Assembly (NCBI GenBank): GCA_965195355.1
Contig: OZ239627.1
Coordinates: forward strand, 1,880-65,879
Reading direction: 5' to 3'
Source of the DNA: Rickettsiales bacterium
Lineage (GTDB): Bacteria > Pseudomonadota > Alphaproteobacteria > Rickettsiales > G965195355
Length of the DNA stretch: 64,000 nt
The notes under the pieces were generated by a model. It ran no database searches and was not told the origin of the DNA. It saw nothing but the letters and a program-made list of their open reading frames with translations. The number at the start of each line of letters is the position of its first letter. Positions within the stretch are counted from its first letter, which is position 1. Made by a program: the position numbers and the translations under genes. Shown in pieces: positions 1,223-59,496 of this stretch.

Positions 1223-1612
1223 ATGCTGCATAGGGACAATTCTCAATTGAGAAGAACTCAAGAACAGGTCGATGCGGTTGTGGGAATCATGCATAATAAT
1301 GTGCAGCGCGTTCTTGATAGAGGGGAGCAATTAGATACATTGGATGCAAGAGCTGAGAGACTTCATGCTGAAGCACAAATGCTTCGAACACAGGCACAGA
1401 ATATCAAACGCAAATTCCTATGCAGAAGCATTAAGTGGTATCTTGTGATTGCATGCATCTCAATGATACTCATTGCATTAATTGCATTAATAATAGCCAT
1501 TGTTGTGCAATTACTCATAGGAAAAACTGATAACACTCCGAAGACACAAATGCTGAGTATCGCTGCGAAAACGCTCTCTGATGTCACAGATGTCATCACT
1601 AATTACTTGTAG
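1223..1612 (+). CDS. Eukaryote-type R-SNARE (synaptobrevin/VAMP-like brevin), tail-anchored membrane protein
   Basis: Residues 8-65 (SQLRRTQEQVDAVVGIMHNNVQRVLDRGEQLDTLDARAERLHAEAQMLRTQAQNIKRKF) align without gaps to the VAMP2 SNARE motif. The zero-layer Arg is conserved (R33, nt 1319-1321). A KRKF juxtamembrane linker and a single C-terminal TM helix (res 72-99, nt 1436-1519) follow. Confidence 0.85.
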   Translation: MLHRDNSQLRRTQEQVDAVVGIMHNNVQRVLDRGEQLDTLDARAERLHAEAQMLRTQAQNIKRKFLCRSIKWYLVIACISMILIALIALIIAIVVQLLIGKTDNTPKTQMLSIAAKTLSDVTDVITNYL

Positions 1613-3535: not shown

Positions 3536-4663
3536 TTATACCTCTAATTCCTCATGCTTCTTGAATTTCTTATATTGCATCATCACAAAATCTGATTTGT
3601 GCACTCGCTTACGATTTGCTCTGACACTGAAATTCACCTCCGCATCAATACCACGTGCATTAATCTTGCTCATCAAAATCGCTTTATTCAACTCCATTCC
3701 TTGGACCATATCTTGATCTTCATGCAAGACTGCAATTTTTACTTGGCCTGCGTTCATATGAGACTTGATCTCTAATGCGCTACCATCTTTCATTGCAACA
3801 TATACATTTTTCTCTTGATCTATTTTCTCGAGAACAGTGACATTACTGGTTTCACTCTGTATATTTCCTTTGTGATGATCATCAGTAAAATATGTCACGA
3901 CATTGGATCGTACTCCTTGATCAGCAATTGCATGATTGAATCCCACATGTTTTATGGAATCTTTATTTCCTTGCACAAGATTGACACATTCTATACTTGG
4001 CATTTTTGTAATTTCTCTAATGTCATTAATCCTATCATGCTGCTCGCAATGCTGAGGATTGTATCTAGCTATATGCAACTTCTCATCATTCGTCACAGGA
4101 GCAATGATATTATTATCAGATCGCTCATTACATACACGCAGCAACTGATGTTGTGAATTTGCTGCATTATTATTCTGTTTATGATATATTGTAGAGTCTT
4201 GCATCTCAGTAATAGATGATACACTAATCTCATGCTTGTGAGCATGCACAATATCGCCGCGCAACACTTGCGCAGTATTCTGCTCCTCAATAACAACATC
4301 TGCATTGGTGCCATATAAATGCAAACGAGATGTTTTATTGCATGATATCGCAAGAGATTTACTAGCTAGTGATTTTTGACGTTGTTTATTGAGTGATACT
4401 TTTTGACATTCATTATTCCCTATTACATGAATATCACTCTGCACCTGAGCATCATGCTGCGTAACGGAGTATGATTCGCGCTTAATCATGCTTGGCTGAT
4501 GCGTAATTGAACAAGATTTCTGTGTAGTTGCGACATCCATTATATCTAGACTTCGCACATCGTGATCTTGCATCAGAGATTGAGTCATCACATGCATAAA
4601 ATCCCCAGCAACCACTTGACGCTTGCGCTGCATACCTGTCACAGAATTCTGAATAACTCTCAT
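3536..4663 (-). CDS. fliK: FliK-like flagellar hook-length control protein (tentative)
   Basis: The C-terminal segment ALEIKSHMNAGQVKIAVLHEDQDMVQGMELNKAILMSKINARGIDAEVNFSV fits the FliK C-terminal (Flg_hook) pattern. The N-terminal part is Q/N/H-rich and poorly conserved. The gene abuts flgD, giving the usual fliK-flgD-flgE order. I start it at ATG 4663 (MRVIQNS); the track ORF extends to 4813 through an implausible Ile/Phe/Tyr-rich leader. Confidence 0.5.
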   Translation of the reverse strand: MRVIQNSVTGMQRKRQVVAGDFMHVMTQSLMQDHDVRSLDIMDVATTQKSCSITHQPSMIKRESYSVTQHDAQVQSDIHVIGNNECQKVSLNKQRQKSLASKSLAISCNKTSRLHLYGTNADVVIEEQNTAQVLRGDIVHAHKHEISVSSITEMQDSTIYHKQNNNAANSQHQLLRVCNERSDNNIIAPVTNDEKLHIARYNPQHCEQHDRINDIREITKMPSIECVNLVQGNKDSIKHVGFNHAIADQGVRSNVVTYFTDDHHKGNIQSETSNVTVLEKIDQEKNVYVAMKDGSALEIKSHMNAGQVKIAVLHEDQDMVQGMELNKAILMSKINARGIDAEVNFSVRANRKRVHKSDFVMMQYKKFKKHEELEV

Positions 4664-4781
4664 GTTGCAGAGTATATATCCATTATAGCATGTGTAAATG
4701 ATAGTGATCTCATATATATTCTCCAATCTTAATCGAATAAAAATATATTTAATACAAAATAATATCTGATGTAACGGGAAG

Positions 4782-6428
4782 TTGATGGGAATATTTGATA
4801 AAAAACAAAGCATTGATGCACAAGCAAAACAACAAGTGTGGGAGAGAGGATTGAGACAAGGTGATCATCAATACCAAGCAGAATTAGCTAATGCAAAGAA
4901 GGAATTGAAACAGGAAAAAGCGCAAGAAAAAGAAGAATTAAAACAGCAAAGATATGCAAGAAGCAAAAAAGGACAAAAGGAAATAGCACAAGAAGAAGCA
5001 TCAAAAAACAATCTGTGGGTTGATACAGATGCAGCAGCGAAAGCCACACAGCAAGAGGCATTACAACAAACAGAATTAAATGGCATGAAGCAACATATCA
5101 CAGATCGAAATAAAATTCAGCAAAGCATTATAGATACTACATCTTCAACTACATTGGAAAAAAACGCTGCAATACACAAATTACAAGAACTCTTTCAATT
5201 ACATGCAACAGTAATAAACGCGCAAAACACAAGTGCTCAAGGTGCACCCTCCATGCCAAATCAGGAATTACGCACTGCAATAACACAAGAGATGGAAAAT
5301 GGAGTGCGTATTGATGCACGAGTTTCCACATTAAAACCATACATCGCAGAATTAGAAACAAAATTACAAAATTTAGAATCCACCCCTGCACAGAAAGAAT
5401 TAGTGCAAAAAGCATTAGCTGCACTGAATGATCCCAACAGAGCGCAACATGCTTATACCAACAAAGAATGGAAGACGATGCCTGATGCACAATTGATTGC
5501 TGAAATTGAAACTAGGCTCTTAAGTAAAGGCAACAGAACTCTAGAGACAATACAAAAAGATCTACAACAAGGAAGAGATAATTATATTTCTCAACATAAT
5601 GCAAACGCATTGAAATCAGTTCAAACTAAGGACGCACTCAAGGACGTGGATCTTAGTCAAGATGCAAATCTGAATCAGATACAAGCTCTAATGAAGTATT
5701 CTGCACAAAAAGCGCAAGAATCAGCAGTAGAAATACGAAATCCAGAAACACCAGCACCGAAAACTGGTTTCTTGTCAAAATTATTTAGGCGCAAGAGTAA
5801 TGTGTTAGATTCTGTGAGTGCATCAGTAGATGATACTCTTGCACCATCAAGTGATTCTGTAAGTGCTATCAATAAACAAAGTGGACCAGGTAAAGATGCA
5901 GTGGGTAACCTTGTATCTCAAATGCAACAATCAAATCCCAACATACCCCTCATTCAATCCAAACAAGATACCATGCAACAAGCAGCTCAACATATGAGTG
6001 GGTCTGGTGTTATGACTGAGCATCAGAGCAATGACATCATATCAAATGAGCAGAAAATAGAGGAAGAATTGAGTGATAATGCTCAATTCGAACAAATAAG
6101 AGATGCGAAAGTGAAAGCATTGCAAGAACAATCAAGATCGAGCATGAGAAAACAAGTGCAAGAAGAGATTCAAGATCTAACTAAAGTACTCAGCATTCCT
6201 TCATCCCCAGAAGAGAAAACACAGGCATCAGCTAGACTACACGAGTTATTTAAACTTGATACAGAATTATGCGACAAATCTACACCTGTGTGCAATATTA
6301 AGTACACAGCTGCATCATCAATGAATAATAGTCATAGCGCACTTGCAAGTACTTCAGCTCATCATGATGCTGATTCTGTTACAAGGACGAGCACTGCAGC
6401 ACAATCGGATACAGGAAGATCTTTGTAA
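4782..6428 (+). CDS. Hypothetical Q/E/K-rich coiled-coil protein (orphan, effector candidate)
   Basis: A 548-aa uninterrupted ORF in an AT-rich genome with a strongly polar, helix-prone composition. No recognisable catalytic motif. Confidence 0.6.
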   Translation: MMGIFDKKQSIDAQAKQQVWERGLRQGDHQYQAELANAKKELKQEKAQEKEELKQQRYARSKKGQKEIAQEEASKNNLWVDTDAAAKATQQEALQQTELNGMKQHITDRNKIQQSIIDTTSSTTLEKNAAIHKLQELFQLHATVINAQNTSAQGAPSMPNQELRTAITQEMENGVRIDARVSTLKPYIAELETKLQNLESTPAQKELVQKALAALNDPNRAQHAYTNKEWKTMPDAQLIAEIETRLLSKGNRTLETIQKDLQQGRDNYISQHNANALKSVQTKDALKDVDLSQDANLNQIQALMKYSAQKAQESAVEIRNPETPAPKTGFLSKLFRRKSNVLDSVSASVDDTLAPSSDSVSAINKQSGPGKDAVGNLVSQMQQSNPNIPLIQSKQDTMQQAAQHMSGSGVMTEHQSNDIISNEQKIEEELSDNAQFEQIRDAKVKALQEQSRSSMRKQVQEEIQDLTKVLSIPSSPEEKTQASARLHELFKLDTELCDKSTPVCNIKYTAASSMNNSHSALASTSAHHDADSVTRTSTAAQSDTGRSL

Positions 6429-6439
6429 TGTCAACAACT

Positions 6440-6465
6440 CTTAACTATATAATTATATAGTTAAG
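6440..6465. repeat. Perfect 26-bp AT-rich palindrome (CTTAACTATATAA/TTATATAGTTAAG)
   Basis: Read directly: nt 6440-6452 are the exact reverse complement of 6453-6465. It starts 12 nt after the stop of ORF 4782-6428. Confidence 0.9.
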
Positions 6466-6597
6466 ATATAAAAATATGTTTACACGACGCGCATCCAGAT
6501 TTATCGCAGGGGTTGCAAAAGAAACAGGTATTGAGCAGGCAAAGAAGCGGTTAGACAACGTGATAAGAAAGCAGAATCAATAACATCAACTCCTATT

Positions 6598-6837
6598 GTG
6601 CGTAGAAGAATGAAATCTGAATCATGTCATTCATCTTATCCAATAAGTACAAAAGAATCATCATTTACGAATAAACAAGATTCAATATTATCAAACAATG
6701 CAGCGCGCGCTGCAGTACTTAACGCTTTTCGTGCTCATGATTCTAATATCGGATTCTCGTTTGATCACGATCAAAACTTAAGTATATCCAATCCAAGAAT
6801 TGCATTACAAAACGAAGGCACGAGTGTTGATAGGTAG
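6598..6837 (+). CDS. Hypothetical small protein (start uncertain: GTG 6598 or ATG 6610)
   Basis: ORF only; S/N-rich and ends in ..EGTSVDR. Confidence 0.3.
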   Translation: MRRRMKSESCHSSYPISTKESSFTNKQDSILSNNAARAAVLNAFRAHDSNIGFSFDHDQNLSISNPRIALQNEGTSVDR

Positions 6838-6877
6838 CATTAAGATCTCAATGATCTACTTTTAAAGTAAGAAATAT

Positions 6878-7390
6878 ATGAAATACAATCTTTTATCTAT
6901 AGTCACATCTACTGCAAAAACAGGCACAACTCACTTTCTAAAGAAAGTATCTTCATTTTTGTCTGCTATGATAAATCCGATATCGTTTTTTGGATTTGTT
7001 GCACAAACAGTGCGAACTCAATATGAGCGTCTCACCCATCCAGATGCTCGAAAACCTGAAGCAGTGAAAACAGAGACAGTGGCAATATTAATAGAAGGCA
7101 ATCTTGATGGTTTAAACAAAAAAGAATTGACTGCTAAGATAGCTGTGCAACGCGGAGTACATTCAAATAATGTACAAATTCATGCTCAACACAAAATAGA
7201 TGCCTCCCAACACAATACTCCAGAAGAACGTCAAGAATTTGCCAAAAATTGCCTACAGCAATTCAATTTGGCACAAGAATTTGCGAAAAAAACAGCAGGA
7301 AGCATCGCATCCAGCACTCAATCAACATCAGATTCAATAGAAAAACCAATCATTGGCATTGCTACTACCGCTCAAGAGGCTACACGATAA
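6878..7390 (+). CDS. Hypothetical protein sharing a C-terminal tail with the next ORF
   Basis: A 170-aa ORF whose tail AGSIASSTQSTSDSIEKPIIGIATTAQEATR parallels the tail of ORF 7465-7947. Confidence 0.5.
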   Translation: MKYNLLSIVTSTAKTGTTHFLKKVSSFLSAMINPISFFGFVAQTVRTQYERLTHPDARKPEAVKTETVAILIEGNLDGLNKKELTAKIAVQRGVHSNNVQIHAQHKIDASQHNTPEERQEFAKNCLQQFNLAQEFAKKTAGSIASSTQSTSDSIEKPIIGIATTAQEATR

Positions 7391-7464
7391 TCATTAATAT
7401 TTGAAACAATATATTAAGAATATAATGATATTATATATATATAACTTTAATTTAGGTAATCACC

Positions 7465-7947
7465 ATGGCACATTGGCTCACAAGACTCTTTTCAGGAGCA
7501 TCATACTCTATGAAAGGCACAGAATCAGAAATTCCAGCACCAAATCAAGATCCAGACAATCTTATCTCTGATGTTATAAATCGTGCTGATGTTACACCAA
7601 GTGCACTTGCCTCTGAAAATGCTACTGTTATAGATCGTGATATGAATTCCAATAGTGCACTTGATTATTCATTAGTCGAGGGGGAATTAACACATGCGCG
7701 TGTATATGATGGAAGGATGTATGAGGATACGGAGACAATATTGAGCAATCAATTACTAGATTTTACCTCATCTGCATTTAGACGTACTGATACAATATCA
7801 ATTGAGCAAAAAAATACTAGGCGTCAGTCAAGAGAGGGAAATATTGCAGACATGACTGGAGCAATAGCAGGAGGAATACAGAGCACTAGCACAGCAACAG
7901 CACCAATTACAGGAGAAGCGAGAGCAAATGTGGAAGCTACTCGATAA
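7465..7947 (+). CDS. Hypothetical protein sharing a C-terminal tail with the previous ORF
   Basis: A 160-aa ORF whose tail AGGIQSTSTATAPITGEARANVEATR parallels the tail of ORF 6878-7390. Confidence 0.5.
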   Translation: MAHWLTRLFSGASYSMKGTESEIPAPNQDPDNLISDVINRADVTPSALASENATVIDRDMNSNSALDYSLVEGELTHARVYDGRMYEDTETILSNQLLDFTSSAFRRTDTISIEQKNTRRQSREGNIADMTGAIAGGIQSTSTATAPITGEARANVEATR

Positions 7948-44191: not shown

Positions 44192-45379
44192 ATGTCCGCT
44201 TTTTTCAAATCTCTGTTCAGTAAAAACTCTCCGTTTCCTGGATATCACACATTTTCACCATTTTGCGGTGGTTCATCTCTCACATCTCTCAGCGCAAAAA
44301 CAATTCAGGAATGTGGAAACAATCCAATTGCATATCGCTGCATGGATATGATCTGCTCTTCTGTAGCATCTCTTTATATTGTACTTGAGAGATTCAATCA
44401 ATGTGGAAGATATAGGCTCAATTGCAAGCATCCAATCATAGATGTAATGGCGCATCCAAACATGTATATGTCCGGTCATGAATTCTTATATGGAATCACA
44501 AAATCACTAATGGAATATGGCAATGCTTTCGTACGAGTGGTGCGAGACAGTGATGGAGTGCCTACTGAATTATATTCACTACCAGCAAATCAAGTTGAAA
44601 TCACCTTCAATAAACGAAATTATCCCGATTCATATAAATATCAAGCAGGTGGAAAAACACATGTTTTCAAGATTCATCCAATTAGTGGCCAATGCGACAT
44701 CACACATATCAAAAATGGATCATCCTCAAATATATTCCTGGGACAAGGAGCATTGCAGATCGCTGCTCCAGCAATCAGACAATATAATGCCATCTCAGAA
44801 TGGAATCATTCGTATATTGAGAATGGAGCCAAACCCAGTGGCATGCTGATCATGGAAGGAGGAAAAAACCTCTCCGAAGAGCAATATCAGAGAGTGAAGC
44901 ATCAAATTGAAACTTCTTTCACTGGAGCATCTAATGCGGGACGTCCGATGTTACTTGAAGGTGGTCTTAAGTGGCAAGAAATGAAAAATGCATCTCATGC
45001 AGAAACTTGTTACGTTGAAAATATAAGGATTCAAACTCGAAACATAGCAATAGCATTCGGAGTACCGCCATCTCTGATTTCAACAGATGAAGCTAAATAC
45101 TCAAATTTCTTAGAATCCAAGGTTGCATTTTTAGAAAGAACAGTTCTGCCAATTGCTGATAATATACTCGGACACTTGAGTAGGTGCTTCGAAGGATTAT
45201 TTGATGATGATCTCACAATCACTTATGATAAATCAAAGATCGGAGAGTTCTCTGAGCAGAAATACAAGCTGCTGGAGTATATCAAGAATGCAGATTTTAT
45301 GACTAGAGAGGAAAAGCGCGATCTCTTCAATTTGGATGATTACGTAAAAGAATCTACATCTGGAACTATCGAGACTTAA
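44192..45379 (+). CDS. Phage/GTA portal protein, HK97 family
   Basis: Size (395 aa) and motifs typical of HK97-family portals: NP.AYRC......S.ASL, GNAFV, F.G..NAGRPMLLEGGLKWQ and NIAIAFGVPP.L. Confidence 0.85.
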   Translation: MSAFFKSLFSKNSPFPGYHTFSPFCGGSSLTSLSAKTIQECGNNPIAYRCMDMICSSVASLYIVLERFNQCGRYRLNCKHPIIDVMAHPNMYMSGHEFLYGITKSLMEYGNAFVRVVRDSDGVPTELYSLPANQVEITFNKRNYPDSYKYQAGGKTHVFKIHPISGQCDITHIKNGSSSNIFLGQGALQIAAPAIRQYNAISEWNHSYIENGAKPSGMLIMEGGKNLSEEQYQRVKHQIETSFTGASNAGRPMLLEGGLKWQEMKNASHAETCYVENIRIQTRNIAIAFGVPPSLISTDEAKYSNFLESKVAFLERTVLPIADNILGHLSRCFEGLFDDDLTITYDKSKIGEFSEQKYKLLEYIKNADFMTREEKRDLFNLDDYVKESTSGTIET

Positions 45380-45564
45380 TAGCGCAGAGAAGAAAAGAAA
45401 TCTCTAATTTTCCAGACAAACGGAGTAAAGCAACATATCAATCCATGATCTGCATTGACAGATCCTTGATCTGTAGAACCATAATCACCCATAAGAAACA
45501 AACAAGATTACAACATTAGATCACTAGGATCTTTCCGAGTTCTTAAATTCCTATAATGATGTCA

Positions 45565-45873
45565 TCATCTTGATGTCTCATTACTACAATGAAATATCGT
45601 CATAAAGCATTTGAGAACAGGGCTTAAACAACAACTATTTGGTGCTTCATAAGTAGGTGGGTATTCGTATTCAGGTGGTAACCCCCCCATTCTCTCATTC
45701 TCAAAAGGATTGTGGAATACCCTTCCTGGGGCACCAGGATTATAATCACTTCCTACATAATCCTGCATAGGAATAGGGGATTTCTCAGCTCCATCTATCA
45801 AACCATACCTTGTTGATTGCGCTTGATTGCGACGACGCCGGAATGCATTTCTCAATTTATTACATAATCCCAT
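45565..45873 (-). CDS. Hypothetical small protein with MGLC N-terminus, tandem PPxY motifs and Cys-rich tail
   Basis: A 102-aa ORF. PPEYEYPPTY is encoded at nt 45649-45678. A G7 run (C7 on the + strand, 45682-45688) lies inside the ORF. Confidence 0.45.
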   Translation of the reverse strand: MGLCNKLRNAFRRRRNQAQSTRYGLIDGAEKSPIPMQDYVGSDYNPGAPGRVFHNPFENERMGGLPPEYEYPPTYEAPNSCCLSPVLKCFMTIFHCSNETSR

Positions 45874-45924
45874 AATTCTTATAATTAAAATCTATAATAC
45901 ATATTATACTAATACGGTAAACAT

Positions 45925-46458
45925 ATGCAAACCTCTAACTTGAATTTCTCATTCGAAATGAAAACCCTAAATCGACAAGGAATCTGCGCTGGGTATGCCA
46001 GTGTCTTTAATAACGTCGATGACAATGGAGACATTGTGTGTCCAGGTGCATTCTCTCGATCAATTAACGCTCATAACAATGGAATCAGAGAGATCAAAGT
46101 ATTATGGCAACATAAAATGGATGAACCAATAGGAAAGGTGCTACTAATGCATGAAAATGAGCGCGGTCTCTTCGTTGTATTTGAATTATCTCTCAGTACA
46201 ATCAGAGGTAAAGAGGCATATGACCTATTGAAAGATAATGTCATAAATGGATTATCCATTGGTTTTAGATTAGATAAATACGATATCTCACAGAAACAGA
46301 AAGCAAGATTAATAAAAGAAGTGCGATTACTGGAAATAAGCCTAGTCACAATACCCGCGAATTCAGAAGCACGAATCACAGATATAAAGACAATACAAGA
46401 CAATCTAGGAGATGTGACTAGTGTTATTAGAAGAGCAAGGAAAGTGATTTCATCTTAG
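45925..46458 (+). CDS. HK97-family phage/GTA prohead protease
   Basis: GYASVFNNVDDNGDIVCPGAF, VLWQH....PIGK, GLSIGF and E.SLVT.PAN are typical of the family. Confidence 0.85.
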   Translation: MQTSNLNFSFEMKTLNRQGICAGYASVFNNVDDNGDIVCPGAFSRSINAHNNGIREIKVLWQHKMDEPIGKVLLMHENERGLFVVFELSLSTIRGKEAYDLLKDNVINGLSIGFRLDKYDISQKQKARLIKEVRLLEISLVTIPANSEARITDIKTIQDNLGDVTSVIRRARKVISS

Positions 46459-57257: not shown

Positions 57258-58967
57258 TTATTTTGTAATCAATCCTGATATGTTTGCAGTACCAAGATCC
57301 AAGGAGTCAACATTAGTATTGTGCATGTCTGCATTACTTAAGTTGGTTTCTCTGAATTTTGCATCCTTGAGATAAGCATTGCTTAAATTAGCATTGCTTA
57401 AATTAGCATTCGAAAAATTCGCTTGCTCAAGATTTGCACCTGAAAAATCTGCTTTTGATAAATTCATATCACTGAAATCTACATTGCGATAATTACCATT
57501 CTTAAAATCCTTTGATTTAATATCAGATTTTACAACAATGGCATGTGCATTCCTGAGGCTTTGCAAAATACCAATTTGTTGATTTTCTACAAACCAAGAG
57601 CGATCTGCTTTAATGTTATCTAGAATCACATCTCTAAACGCACTCTTGACTGCACTAGAGCGCTTCAAATTAAGGTTACCAATATATAATCCCTCAAATC
57701 TTGAATCATACATACTCATGTAATTCATGCTACCATTTTTTATCGACACATTGCTCAGATTAGAATTAACAATATTGGATCTATCAAAATTTGAATTTAA
57801 GAAATTTGAATCCTGTAAATCTGAATCCTGGATACGTATTTTTGCCAAATCAACTCTTGCAAAATCGCTACTCTTTATCTTTGAATCCAATATAGAACCA
57901 TTCGATATAAAAGAATCATGAAATACTAATCCATCTATAAATGCATTATGAATATTAATATCATTAAGATCAGAAGATTTGAAATAAGAGTCCTTAATGA
58001 GAATCTTATCATTCGCATATTTAGACCATGCTACCGATCCAAGATAAGAATTCTTAATGCTTACTTTATCTCCCATTGCATTTTTTACGATAATATCTTT
58101 CGCATAGCTCTCATGAAATTGCATGCCGTACACAGCAGCATATGGTAATTTTGTGTTCGATATCTCTGCACCACGGAAATTGGAGAATGACATGTCGGAG
58201 AATGACATGTCGGAATTTGTGATTTTAGATTTAAAGAAATGTACATGAGCAAGATTTGATGATTCAAGGTGGGATTTCTCAATTTCAACAAAATCCAGAT
58301 CCGCATTCTCTAAATTTGCACCATACATATCAGCATTCTTAAATTTAGAAAAATGCAACACTGCATTTGGCATTTCTATATATCTGCAATCAACATTACT
58401 CAATCTTGATCCCACGATCGTTGAACGATTCCCAACAAGTGATTTCATGTTCGCACTATCAAGGTTTGAATTTGAAATAGAGCTTTGCAATAAATCCATC
58501 TTGCGCATATCCACATGATTCATGGAAGCATCAGATATTTGAGTGGTAACCAAGATCGAGCGCGATAGATTTGCATTATCTAATTTAGAATTAACAATAG
58601 AACTATTTGTGATCTCTGCATGAGAGAAATTAATCTTTCGCATATCAGATGAAATAAATTTGGAAGTATAAATCTTTGCATTTCTAAACTGAGCGTTGCT
58701 TAGATCTGAGCCCTTAAATAAGGAATTAGTGATACTAGCATTTGTGAAATCTGCTCCTGAAATATCAACATTCTTAAAATTCATGTTGTATATATTGAGT
58801 TCTCGTAAATCCGCATTTCGGAGATCCTTTCCAATGGAGTTGGCAACCTCTATTGTGACTCTACCATCATATTTTAATATAACATCCCTCAACTTGCTCG
58901 TTGCCACTGATGCATCAGCATTGACATAATAGAAAAAACATAGTGTCAAAAAATATATGGCGCGCAT
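57258..58967 (-). CDS. Secreted pentapeptide-repeat protein (569 aa)
   Basis: Has a signal peptide (MRAIYFLTLCFFYYVNADA). A(D/N)LxX-type pentapeptide periodicity runs through nearly the whole protein (for example ANLEQANFSNANLSNANLSNAYLKDAKF) and shows as 15-nt DNA periodicity at 57350-57460. Confidence 0.88.
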   Translation of the reverse strand: MRAIYFLTLCFFYYVNADASVATSKLRDVILKYDGRVTIEVANSIGKDLRNADLRELNIYNMNFKNVDISGADFTNASITNSLFKGSDLSNAQFRNAKIYTSKFISSDMRKINFSHAEITNSSIVNSKLDNANLSRSILVTTQISDASMNHVDMRKMDLLQSSISNSNLDSANMKSLVGNRSTIVGSRLSNVDCRYIEMPNAVLHFSKFKNADMYGANLENADLDFVEIEKSHLESSNLAHVHFFKSKITNSDMSFSDMSFSNFRGAEISNTKLPYAAVYGMQFHESYAKDIIVKNAMGDKVSIKNSYLGSVAWSKYANDKILIKDSYFKSSDLNDINIHNAFIDGLVFHDSFISNGSILDSKIKSSDFARVDLAKIRIQDSDLQDSNFLNSNFDRSNIVNSNLSNVSIKNGSMNYMSMYDSRFEGLYIGNLNLKRSSAVKSAFRDVILDNIKADRSWFVENQQIGILQSLRNAHAIVVKSDIKSKDFKNGNYRNVDFSDMNLSKADFSGANLEQANFSNANLSNANLSNAYLKDAKFRETNLSNADMHNTNVDSLDLGTANISGLITK

Positions 58968-59073: not shown

Positions 59074-59379
59074 TTATTGTGCCAGTGAAGTAGTGGCATT
59101 CACTAGAGCACTAGTCACAGCATCAGTCATGATAGTAGAAACAGTATCATTGCCCATTGTAGTACCATTCATTGCAGGATCATCCTTGTGTTCCCAGAGG
59201 TAATAGCTCCCATAGGCCAAAGCCCCCATGTACACAATCAGACCTGCATGAAAGATACCACAAAACAAACGACTGCGCCTTGTTTTTGTTGAACCACTCT
59301 CCACATCATCAGCGCTGCTTGAATCTGCTATTTCTAATGCTTCTGAAGTGTCATCATGTCTTTCCTCACTTCCTGCCAT
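59074..59379 (-). CDS. Hypothetical small single-pass membrane protein
   Basis: Start taken at ATG 59379 (MAGSEERHDD). It has an acidic N-terminus, one TM helix (LFCGIFHAGLIVYMGALAYGSYY) and a T/A/S-rich tail. Confidence 0.4.
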   Translation of the reverse strand: MAGSEERHDDTSEALEIADSSSADDVESGSTKTRRSRLFCGIFHAGLIVYMGALAYGSYYLWEHKDDPAMNGTTMGNDTVSTIMTDAVTSALVNATTSLAQ

Positions 59380-59496
59380 ATTAAAACCATAATTATTAAT
59401 TAATGATATATTAATTATATTAATCGCGTACGTCAATACCCTTTAAGAATTGACGCAGCATGGAAAAAGATTAGTGTATTCTTTTGGGAGATTGCT

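Follow-up and report, generated by a model that had tools for sequence, protein, structure and literature searches.

Introduction

Bona fide SNAREs are rare in bacteria and, in the literature searched, are confined to the Legionellales, in which R-, Qa-, Qbc- and Qc-SNAREs have been described (bioRxiv 10.1101/810531; PMC9546365). Neveu et al., who scanned prokaryotic proteins with SNARE-type hidden Markov models, recovered more than 30 such proteins from the Legionellales, with three clusters of R-SNAREs, and detected none in the alphaproteobacteria, the class that holds the Rickettsiales and the relatives of mitochondria (bioRxiv 10.1101/810531). Here we describe a complete gene for an R-SNARE of the brevin (synaptobrevin) type in a 64,000-nucleotide stretch of DNA assigned to a Rickettsiales bacterium (GenBank assembly GCA_965195355.1, contig OZ239627.1, positions 1,880 to 65,879), which is referred to below as the window and within which all coordinates are given. 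Literature searches turned up no earlier account of a Rickettsiales or Holosporales genome that encodes a synaptobrevin.

Most of the SNAREs reported by Neveu et al. end in a CAAX box, and in three a transmembrane domain (TMD) is followed by another, the two forming a hairpin (bioRxiv 10.1101/810531). A further ten SNAREs of the Legionellales came from Khalifeh et al., who described bacterial R-SNAREs with a CAAX box, most bacterial SNAREs being without a TMD; the SNAREs of giant viruses keep theirs, probably because they are translated in the host cytosol (PMC9546365). For one bacterial R-SNARE, complexes with SNAP-25 and syntaxin 1, both binary and ternary, have been demonstrated (bioRxiv 10.1101/810531), and the Qc-SNARE LseA of L. 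pneumophila is translocated by Dot/Icm (bioRxiv 10.1101/810531; PMC9546365). An earlier note on this stretch, made from the sequence alone, had held known bacterial SNAREs to be much less canonical than the present gene, a view that the publication of bona fide Legionellales SNAREs has made outdated (bioRxiv 10.1101/810531; PMC9546365). The 'rv-SNARE' of the PDB is a designed protein and has no bearing here.

A brevin-type R-SNARE gene

The open reading frame (ORF) at 1223-1612 (+) starts with ATG and runs, uninterrupted and intron-free, through 129 codons to a TAG stop; its translation is MLHRDNSQLRRTQEQVDAVVGIMHNNVQRVLDRGEQLDTLDARAERLHAEAQMLRTQAQNIKRKFLCRSIKWYLVIACISMILIALIALIIAIVVQLLIGKTDNTPKTQMLSIAAKTLSDVTDVITNYL. 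In a Pfam-A search this protein matched Synaptobrevin (PF00957) with 87.7 bits and an E-value of 4.5e-25, residues 6-91 aligning to positions 2-87 of the 89 in the profile, against a gathering cut-off of 26.4 bits, and all remaining matches were far under their own thresholds. A phmmer search against all PDB sequences placed VAMP2 chains first (top match 2kog_A, E 1.3e-14), in an alignment that is ungapped across residues 5-88, followed by VAMP8 (3e-9), VAMP4 (3e-8), Nyv1 and Snc1 (both ~1e-6), VAMP7 (4.5e-5) and Ykt6 (4e-3). This order of matches indicates a protein of the brevin rather than the longin type. In addition, no longin domain is present, as only 7 residues stand N-terminal to the SNARE motif, and the Pro-rich N-terminus of VAMP2-type brevins is missing. 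Judged by these matches, the ORF and the brevin-type R-SNAREs of eukaryotes are truly homologous, the VAMP1-3/synaptobrevin group being the nearest. The earlier note had quoted the same 129-aa ORF, which agrees exactly with the ORF list and the sequence, had aligned it to VAMP2 without gaps, as the PDB search did, and had named beforehand a significant PF00957 match as a test of its claim; the match given above clears the cut-off by a wide margin.

The SNARE motif occupies residues 8-65 (1244-1417, +) and contains 16 heptad layers, -7 to +8, which were read from the ungapped VAMP2 alignment in a register where residue i corresponds to VAMP2 residue i+23. The layer residues are L9, T12, V16, V19, M23, N26, V30, R33, L37, L40, A44, L47, A51, L54, A58 and I61. 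Fourteen of the 16 are identical in VAMP2, and the two that differ, +6 (F to L) and +8 (L to I), are conservative replacements. Identity over the whole motif is 28/58, and it is concentrated in the layers (14/16) relative to the non-layer positions (14/42; Fisher p = 2.3e-4). The zero-layer arginine, Arg33, corresponds to VAMP2 Arg56 and is encoded by the AGA codon at 1319-1321 (+); our recount and alignment arrived at the same arginine, the same nucleotides and the same number of identical layers as the earlier note. In an alignment of 36 brevins (A1), made up of the SNARE protein and its 35 best database matches, the bacterial protein fits without a gap, and the sole invariant columns are N26 and R33. 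R-SNAREs assemble with Qa-, Qb- and Qc-SNAREs into a parallel four-helix bundle, and the protein may do likewise.

These data bear directly on whether the protein could be a coiled-coil mimic that converged on the SNARE form and shares no homology with the family. Heptad repeats arise easily, and IncA, IcmG/DotF and LegC are proteins of this kind, but the PF00957 match here lies 61 bits over the cut-off and covers 86 of the 89 profile positions, the VAMP2 alignment continues ungapped through motif, linker and TMD, and the family-invariant N26 and R33 are both in place. Convergence is effectively refuted by this match, this alignment and these two residues, and we give it next to no weight.

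The motif leads into a basic juxtamembrane linker, KRKFLCRSIK (residues 62-71; 1406-1435, +), which the VAMP2 and A1 alignments set against KRKYWWKNLK in VAMP2, so that Leu-Cys stands in the place of Trp-Trp. This is followed by a single predicted transmembrane (TM) helix, WYLVIACISMILIALIALIIAIVVQLLIG (residues 72-100; 1436-1522, +), a hydrophobic span of 29 residues with a best 19-residue Kyte-Doolittle mean of 3.30, compared with 3.36 for the VAMP2 TMD. A single-sequence AlphaFold2 model with a mean predicted local distance difference test score (pLDDT) of 85 consists of one continuous helix over residues 2-100 (pLDDT 82-94), a short loop and a second helix over residues 106-128, which is predicted to be amphipathic and lies in the tail C-terminal of the TM helix (residues 101-129; 1523-1609, +). 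A Foldseek search with this model was uninformative, as expected of a single long helix. The C-terminus reads ...DVITNYL, with no cysteine, and a CAAX box is absent. The predicted architecture is that of a tail-anchored protein in which a short basic linker connects the motif to a single C-terminal TM helix. Alignments, hydropathy and the AlphaFold2 model here bear out the earlier note, which had described a basic linker and one TM helix near the C-terminus, with no longin domain.

In a host membrane the tail, of about 28 aa, would be luminal. The earlier note had called a tail after the TM helix unlike VAMPs, but several eukaryotic brevins in A1 carry tails of 10-40 aa, so a luminal tail is less unusual than it had held. 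Speculatively, the tail might carry an export signal. Its last 20 residues are 80% L/D/A/V/T/S/I/F, against 53 +/- 12.5% in the other window proteins (maximum 85%); this enrichment, some two standard deviations over the other C-termini of the window, is a weak signal, and reading it as a type I secretion signal is speculation. Type I signals described for Ehrlichia reportedly show a similar enrichment of this type. A 120-aa ORF at 59074-59436 (-) encodes a protein with a single hydrophobic segment and a C-terminal tail rich in T/S/A/V (..TIMTDAVTSALVNATTSLAQ) that loosely resembles the tail of the SNARE protein (..AAKTLSDVTDVITNYL), which may reflect a shared C-terminal signal or coincidence.

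Genomic setting, relatives and origin

The gene is embedded in bacterial DNA. Upstream, an AT-rich spacer of 43 nt (1180-1222, +) separates its start from the stop of the 3' part of ligA, which encodes a NAD-dependent DNA ligase (1-1179, +; NF005932, 411 bits), and downstream its stop lies 5 nt from that of the convergent flgE, which encodes the flagellar hook protein (1618-2868, -; NCBIfam FlgE, TIGR03506). Both flanking genes, which the NCBIfam and profile matches confirm, and both distances had been given correctly in the earlier note. Beyond flgE lies flgD, and uvrB is found at 7975-9963. Where the stops of the SNARE gene and flgE converge (1610-1620) no terminator-like hairpin was detected, and the two transcripts probably overlap in antisense.

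Across about 15 billion proteins, no relative of the SNARE protein was nearer than ~46% identity. A word-index search of 5.8 billion proteins matched only the protein itself, its 90% cluster has a single member, and an exhaustive HMMER search of 1.84 billion cluster representatives gave 2341 matches at E <= 1e-3, the best non-self matches being 37-46% identical. The top two of these, at 99 and 90 bits, contain two SNARE motifs each and match in two stretches. The best single-motif matches are nearly tied at 64-70 bits, and unnamed environmental sequences score equally. Those among the best matches that have a source name are all eukaryotic and mostly opisthokont: the rotifers Seison and Adineta, the nematode Panagrolaimus, the tardigrade Paramacrobiotus, the mayfly Ephemera, the aphelid Amoeboaphelidium, the sponge Amphimedon, and VAMP3 of fish and birds. 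Identity to opisthokont brevins is ~40-46%, with the SNARE protein on a long branch. Two metagenome scans returned no relative over 48% identity, and the longer metagenome contigs with a match (L025, L027) are eukaryotic, the neighbouring gene encoding a DHHC palmitoyltransferase. On these similarities the donor would have been a eukaryote with VAMP2/3-like brevins, probably an opisthokont; it can be described only that broadly because the unnamed environmental sequences score as well as the eukaryotic ones.

The composition of the gene is close to that of its neighbours. Its G+C content (GC) of 0.405 (z = 1.0) and its codon adaptation index (CAI, measured relative to the window's genes) of 0.695 (z = -1.4) both lie within the range of the 53 neighbouring genes. 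The G+C content at third codon positions (GC3) is 0.392 against 0.304 +/- 0.037, the highest of the 54 genes, at a z of 2.4 that is modest for a 130-codon gene; this top-of-range value fits incomplete amelioration. Overall, the composition has nearly fully ameliorated to that of the bacterium. The earlier note had pointed to a G+C step at the start of the gene, and its count for the first 120 nt (52/120) is right, whereas the preceding 120 nt hold 26/120 and not the 35/120 stated. By comparison with VAMP2, the core residues have been selectively retained while the composition ameliorated, a pattern that speaks for purifying selection acting on the ability to form SNARE complexes.

The gene's GC3, above that of all others in the set of 54, could also be taken as a trace of host contamination or an assembly chimera, in which a fragment of the host's eukaryotic DNA, or of cDNA, was wrongly built into the contig of the bacterium. 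Two junctions would then have to frame exactly a complete, intron-free coding sequence of 390 nt, 43 nt past ligA and 5 nt from the flgE stop, and the fragment would have to show a GC and a CAI within the range of the bacterial genes. A plausible source is also lacking, eukaryotic and metagenomic sequences being at most about 46-48% identical, and we regard such a chimera as very improbable. Homology together with transfer from a eukaryote to the bacterium is, on the sequence data, very highly probable, transfer being preferred over contamination because the gene is embedded in bacterial DNA and close in composition to its neighbours. The earlier note had suggested host-to-bacterium transfer of a true R-SNARE, and the PF00957 match, the bacterial setting and the composition support this.

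The bacterium and other genes of the window

The contig from which the window is taken is 991,359 bp long. The closest matches of the UvrB protein are 65% identical, and those with taxon names, at 62-64%, are all alphaproteobacterial (Ca. Jidaibacter, Holosporaceae bacterium 'Namur', metagenome-assembled genomes (MAGs) of Rickettsiaceae and Rickettsiales, Ca. Midichloria and Wolbachia). The contig of the best UvrB match has no synteny with the window and no SNARE. For FlgE, the closest relatives among 5.8 billion proteins are at most 33% identical and taxonomically uninformative, and a scan of a species-representative genome collection, which does not include the genome of the window, gave no match. 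These affinities point to a deep-branching, reduced-genome alphaproteobacterium, affiliated with the Rickettsiales or Holosporales and without a close sequenced relative. Given the 991-kb contig and the Rickettsiales/Holosporaceae affinity of UvrB, it is presumably an obligate intracellular symbiont or parasite.

The window further contains flgI, sdhA, groES/groEL, serS, nrdA, polA, def, pdxS/pdxT, folD, aroC, a cytochrome bc1 operon with cytochrome c1, rnhA, atpA/atpH, murE, murC, ubiE, icd, pyrF, genes for M16 peptidases, lspA, ribF, mraY, gatA, ribB, a gene for a RecQ-like helicase, gltA and a homologue of NDUS4. GroEL (16878-18527, +) reaches just 155 bits with Cpn60_TCP1, a seemingly low score for a GroEL from a bacterium, and fits a very divergent lineage. 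Near the SNARE and flagellar genes, at 3536-7947, four ORFs encode proteins of 425 aa (-), 548 aa (+), 170 aa (+) and 160 aa (+) with no Pfam or NCBIfam match. The first of these occupies the expected place of the hook-length protein and might be FliK, and the other three are candidate lineage-specific effectors, the 548-aa protein being Q/E/K-rich and apparently coiled-coil. A 569-aa protein at 57258-58967 (-) consists almost wholly of pentapeptide repeats (PF00805, 168.8 bits; PF13599, 155.4 bits); proteins of this type are often found among the effectors of intracellular bacteria.

Genes for a phage portal protein (PF04860, 222.8 bits) and a prohead protease (PF04586) stand among housekeeping genes at 44192-46458 (+) and look like the remnant of a gene-transfer agent. 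Such remnants are described in reduced alphaproteobacterial endosymbionts of protists (PMC9254644). In the gap between the portal and protease genes, a 102-aa ORF at 45565-45873 (-) with no Pfam match contains two copies of PPxY (..LPPEYEYPPTYEAP..), a short motif to which WW-domain proteins of eukaryotes (Nedd4-type) bind; the ORF may have arisen by chance or may encode a small protein that interacts with the host.

Possible function

With modest confidence, we favour a reading in which this eukaryote-derived R-SNARE is exported, inserted into a host membrane and paired with host Q-SNAREs, in a role that is rather fusogenic; the host-directed pairing in itself appears, from our analysis, slightly favoured. 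In this scheme, for which we infer expression, export, the target membrane, the partners, the promotion rather than the block of fusion and the host association of the bacterium, the bacterium would make and export the protein, plausibly by a type IV or type I secretion route. The C-terminal TM helix would insert into a host-derived membrane, either of a symbiont vacuole or of an organelle, leaving the motif exposed to the host cytosol, where it would zipper with host Qa-, Qb- and Qc-SNAREs. In fusion, the membrane marked in this way would take on the identity of a vesicle of the secretory or endosomal type, which we consider more likely than action as a soluble decoy alone. A fusogenic role is favoured because motif, linker and TMD form one uninterrupted predicted helix, as in fusion-competent v-SNAREs. 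TM anchors transmit the force of zippering, whereas lipid anchors or soluble motifs tend to inhibit. The resulting fusion could supply membrane and nutrients, steer the vacuole away from lysosomes or permit exocytic release. The direct interference with host membrane fusion that the earlier note suggested is plausible.

Several points weigh against this reading, and export is its weakest step. The N-terminal domain has a net charge of +4 and the TMD equals its VAMP2 counterpart in hydrophobicity, and by default the protein would insert into the inner membrane of the bacterium itself, with its motif in the bacterial cytoplasm. No secretion signal was identified in the protein, no genes for a type IV secretion system (T4SS) or a type I secretion system lie within the 64-kb window, and published bacterial SNAREs have mostly swapped the TMD for a CAAX box, which is consistent with a difficulty of export. 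No orthologue was present in any other genome or metagenome searched, so the gene may be a passenger that is specific to its lineage. At 1168-1195 there is a sigma-70-like match, TTGACT-16-TATTTT, and a promoter and terminator scan at the gene gave nothing over the shuffled-sequence background. No Shine-Dalgarno sequence precedes the start, a lack that is uninformative either way because only 16/45 window genes have such a sequence. Finally, the interfacial Trp-Trp of VAMP2 is lost.

With regard to export, the TMD lies about 28 residues from the C-terminus and so probably leaves the ribosome only around termination. As for tail-anchored proteins in general, this late emergence of the TMD would let the protein escape co-translational targeting by the signal recognition particle and keep it accessible to a post-translational route of export. 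The Dot/Icm system of Legionella reportedly secretes TMD-containing effectors via an inner-membrane intermediate, and analogous export via the rvh T4SS of Rickettsiales or a type I system is conceivable.

The predicted N-in insertion into the bacterial inner membrane, which the very hydrophobic TMD and the positive N-terminal domain imply, the lack of a recognisable export signal and of secretion genes in the window, and the uniqueness of the gene to this genome in the collections searched would all fit a retained passenger that is never exported, a tail-anchored inner-membrane protein with no role in host trafficking that is neutral or co-opted for a bacterial function. We consider this decidedly unlikely. 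Reduced genomes of ~1 Mb shed useless genes fast, and a core kept at 14/16 against 14/42 elsewhere, despite nearly full amelioration, is hard to account for unless selection has favoured the binding of Q-SNAREs, proteins that only the host possesses. No Q-SNARE partner and no second R-SNARE was found in the window when an R-SNARE profile was run against all six-frame ORFs and Q-SNAREs were sought with Pfam to E 0.1 in ORFs of at least 150 aa, selected small ORFs in gaps, and the orphan ORFs at 3536-4813 and 4782-6428.

The main alternative to the fusogenic role is that of an inhibitory decoy, in which the exported protein would hold host Q-SNAREs non-productively and block, for example, fusion with lysosomes or autophagosomes. 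The loss of the interfacial Trp-Trp fits such a role, and the +6 and +8 layers and the tail, which are unlike those of VAMP2, could weaken C-terminal zippering or the transfer of force. Inhibitory SNARE-like proteins of intracellular bacteria also have precedents (PMC2756591; PMC3577674), and Chlamydia IncA and the LegC and LseA-type proteins of Legionella are proposed to act in this manner. Set against this, the full-length motif, the short rigid linker and the strongly hydrophobic TMD, joined in one predicted helix, are what fusion requires, all 16 layers are conserved or conservatively replaced, and a TMD would be needless for a pure decoy; taken together, we think the decoy unlikely.

If the fusogenic reading is taken to its full extent, the protein would be a fusion-competent v-SNARE anchored by a TMD, the first to be used by an endosymbiont of the alphaproteobacteria (Rickettsiales- or Holosporales-like), which would export this strongly hydrophobic protein for host machinery to insert into the symbiont-containing membrane or another membrane of the host. 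We put this forward tentatively, as a doubtful proposition. If true, the marked membrane would fuse actively with compartments that carry syntaxin/SNAP-type Q-SNAREs, a fusogenic strategy that sets the protein apart from the SNAREs of the Legionellales, which are lipid-anchored or decoys; the lineage would also have to possess an as yet unrecognised way of exporting tail-anchored proteins. The eukaryote-type TM anchor in any case raises the questions of how a bacterium exports a tail-anchored protein and whether fusion is driven or blocked. For SNARE biophysics, the protein is a compact natural variant of 129 aa in which 14 of 16 layers are kept and the Trp-Trp interface is gone.

Comparison with known SNAREs

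With the eukaryotic brevins of secretory and endosomal membranes, such as VAMP2 and cellubrevin (VAMP3), the protein shares the 16-layer motif, the zero-layer Arg, the basic linker, the single TM helix and the lack of a longin domain. It differs from them in being encoded, intron-free, on a bacterial chromosome, in having just 7 residues before the motif and Leu-Cys for Trp-Trp, and in its tail with an amphipathic helix.

Giant-virus R-SNAREs, such as those of a Coccolithovirus and Bodo saltans virus, are likewise derived from eukaryotes and encoded in the genomes of intracellular parasites, most with a TMD (PMC9546365). Insertion of the TMD poses no problem for the viruses because their proteins are translated in the host cytosol, whereas a bacterium must first export the protein. 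The SNARE mimics, which comprise Chlamydia IncA and Legionella IcmG/DotF and LegC2/3/7, have the same presumed purpose of controlling host fusion (PMC2756591; PMC3577674); they are SNARE-like coiled coils without homology to the family, of which the protein described here is a true member.

A second bacterial match came from a narrower alignment (A2), since A1 was too diverse for a pattern scan. One A2 pattern was scanned against bacterial and archaeal genomes and gave a single match, which is no measure of how widespread bacterial R-SNAREs are. The match is a 315-aa protein of an Endozoicomonas sp. MAG (NZ_OZ239981.1; 5761-6708 (+) of locus L001), with 47.8 bits to PF00957 over profile positions 2-63. 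This bacterium too belongs to a symbiont lineage, and its protein is 58% identical to residues 8-47 of the window's SNARE protein; it is, however, gammaproteobacterial, and contains only the N-terminal half of the motif inside a longer protein. On sequence grounds, the Endozoicomonas fragment is clearly an independent acquisition. On either side of its motif the sequence is unrelated, and the C-terminal region has hydrophobic segments; the neighbouring genes, judged from their translations, are an ORF that resembles enoyl-CoA hydratase and a long one of putative function.

The closest counterparts are the SNAREs of the Legionellales, which include the Legionella R-SNARE cluster, OGT53257.1 ('Gammaproteobacteria bacterium RIFCSPHIGHO2_12_FULL_42_13'), the R-, Qa- and Qbc-SNAREs of Berkiella, and LseA. 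Like the present protein, they are true homologues that host-associated bacteria acquired from eukaryotes; a genome usually has one, and its expected targets are SNAREs of the host. Going by their published descriptions, they differ in being gammaproteobacterial and in ending in a CAAX box or a TMD hairpin, where the protein described here has a single TMD and belongs to a genome that the named UvrB relatives, along with the GTA-like genes and the NDUS4 homologue of the window, mark as alphaproteobacterial. That a near-canonical synaptobrevin occurs in this setting shows that a further major group of intracellular bacteria has independently taken up central parts of the fusion machinery. True SNAREs of eukaryotic derivation are already known from intracellular bacteria, namely the Legionellales; new here are the lineage, which is alphaproteobacterial, a brevin sequence so near to canonical, and the tail anchor, which has been kept.

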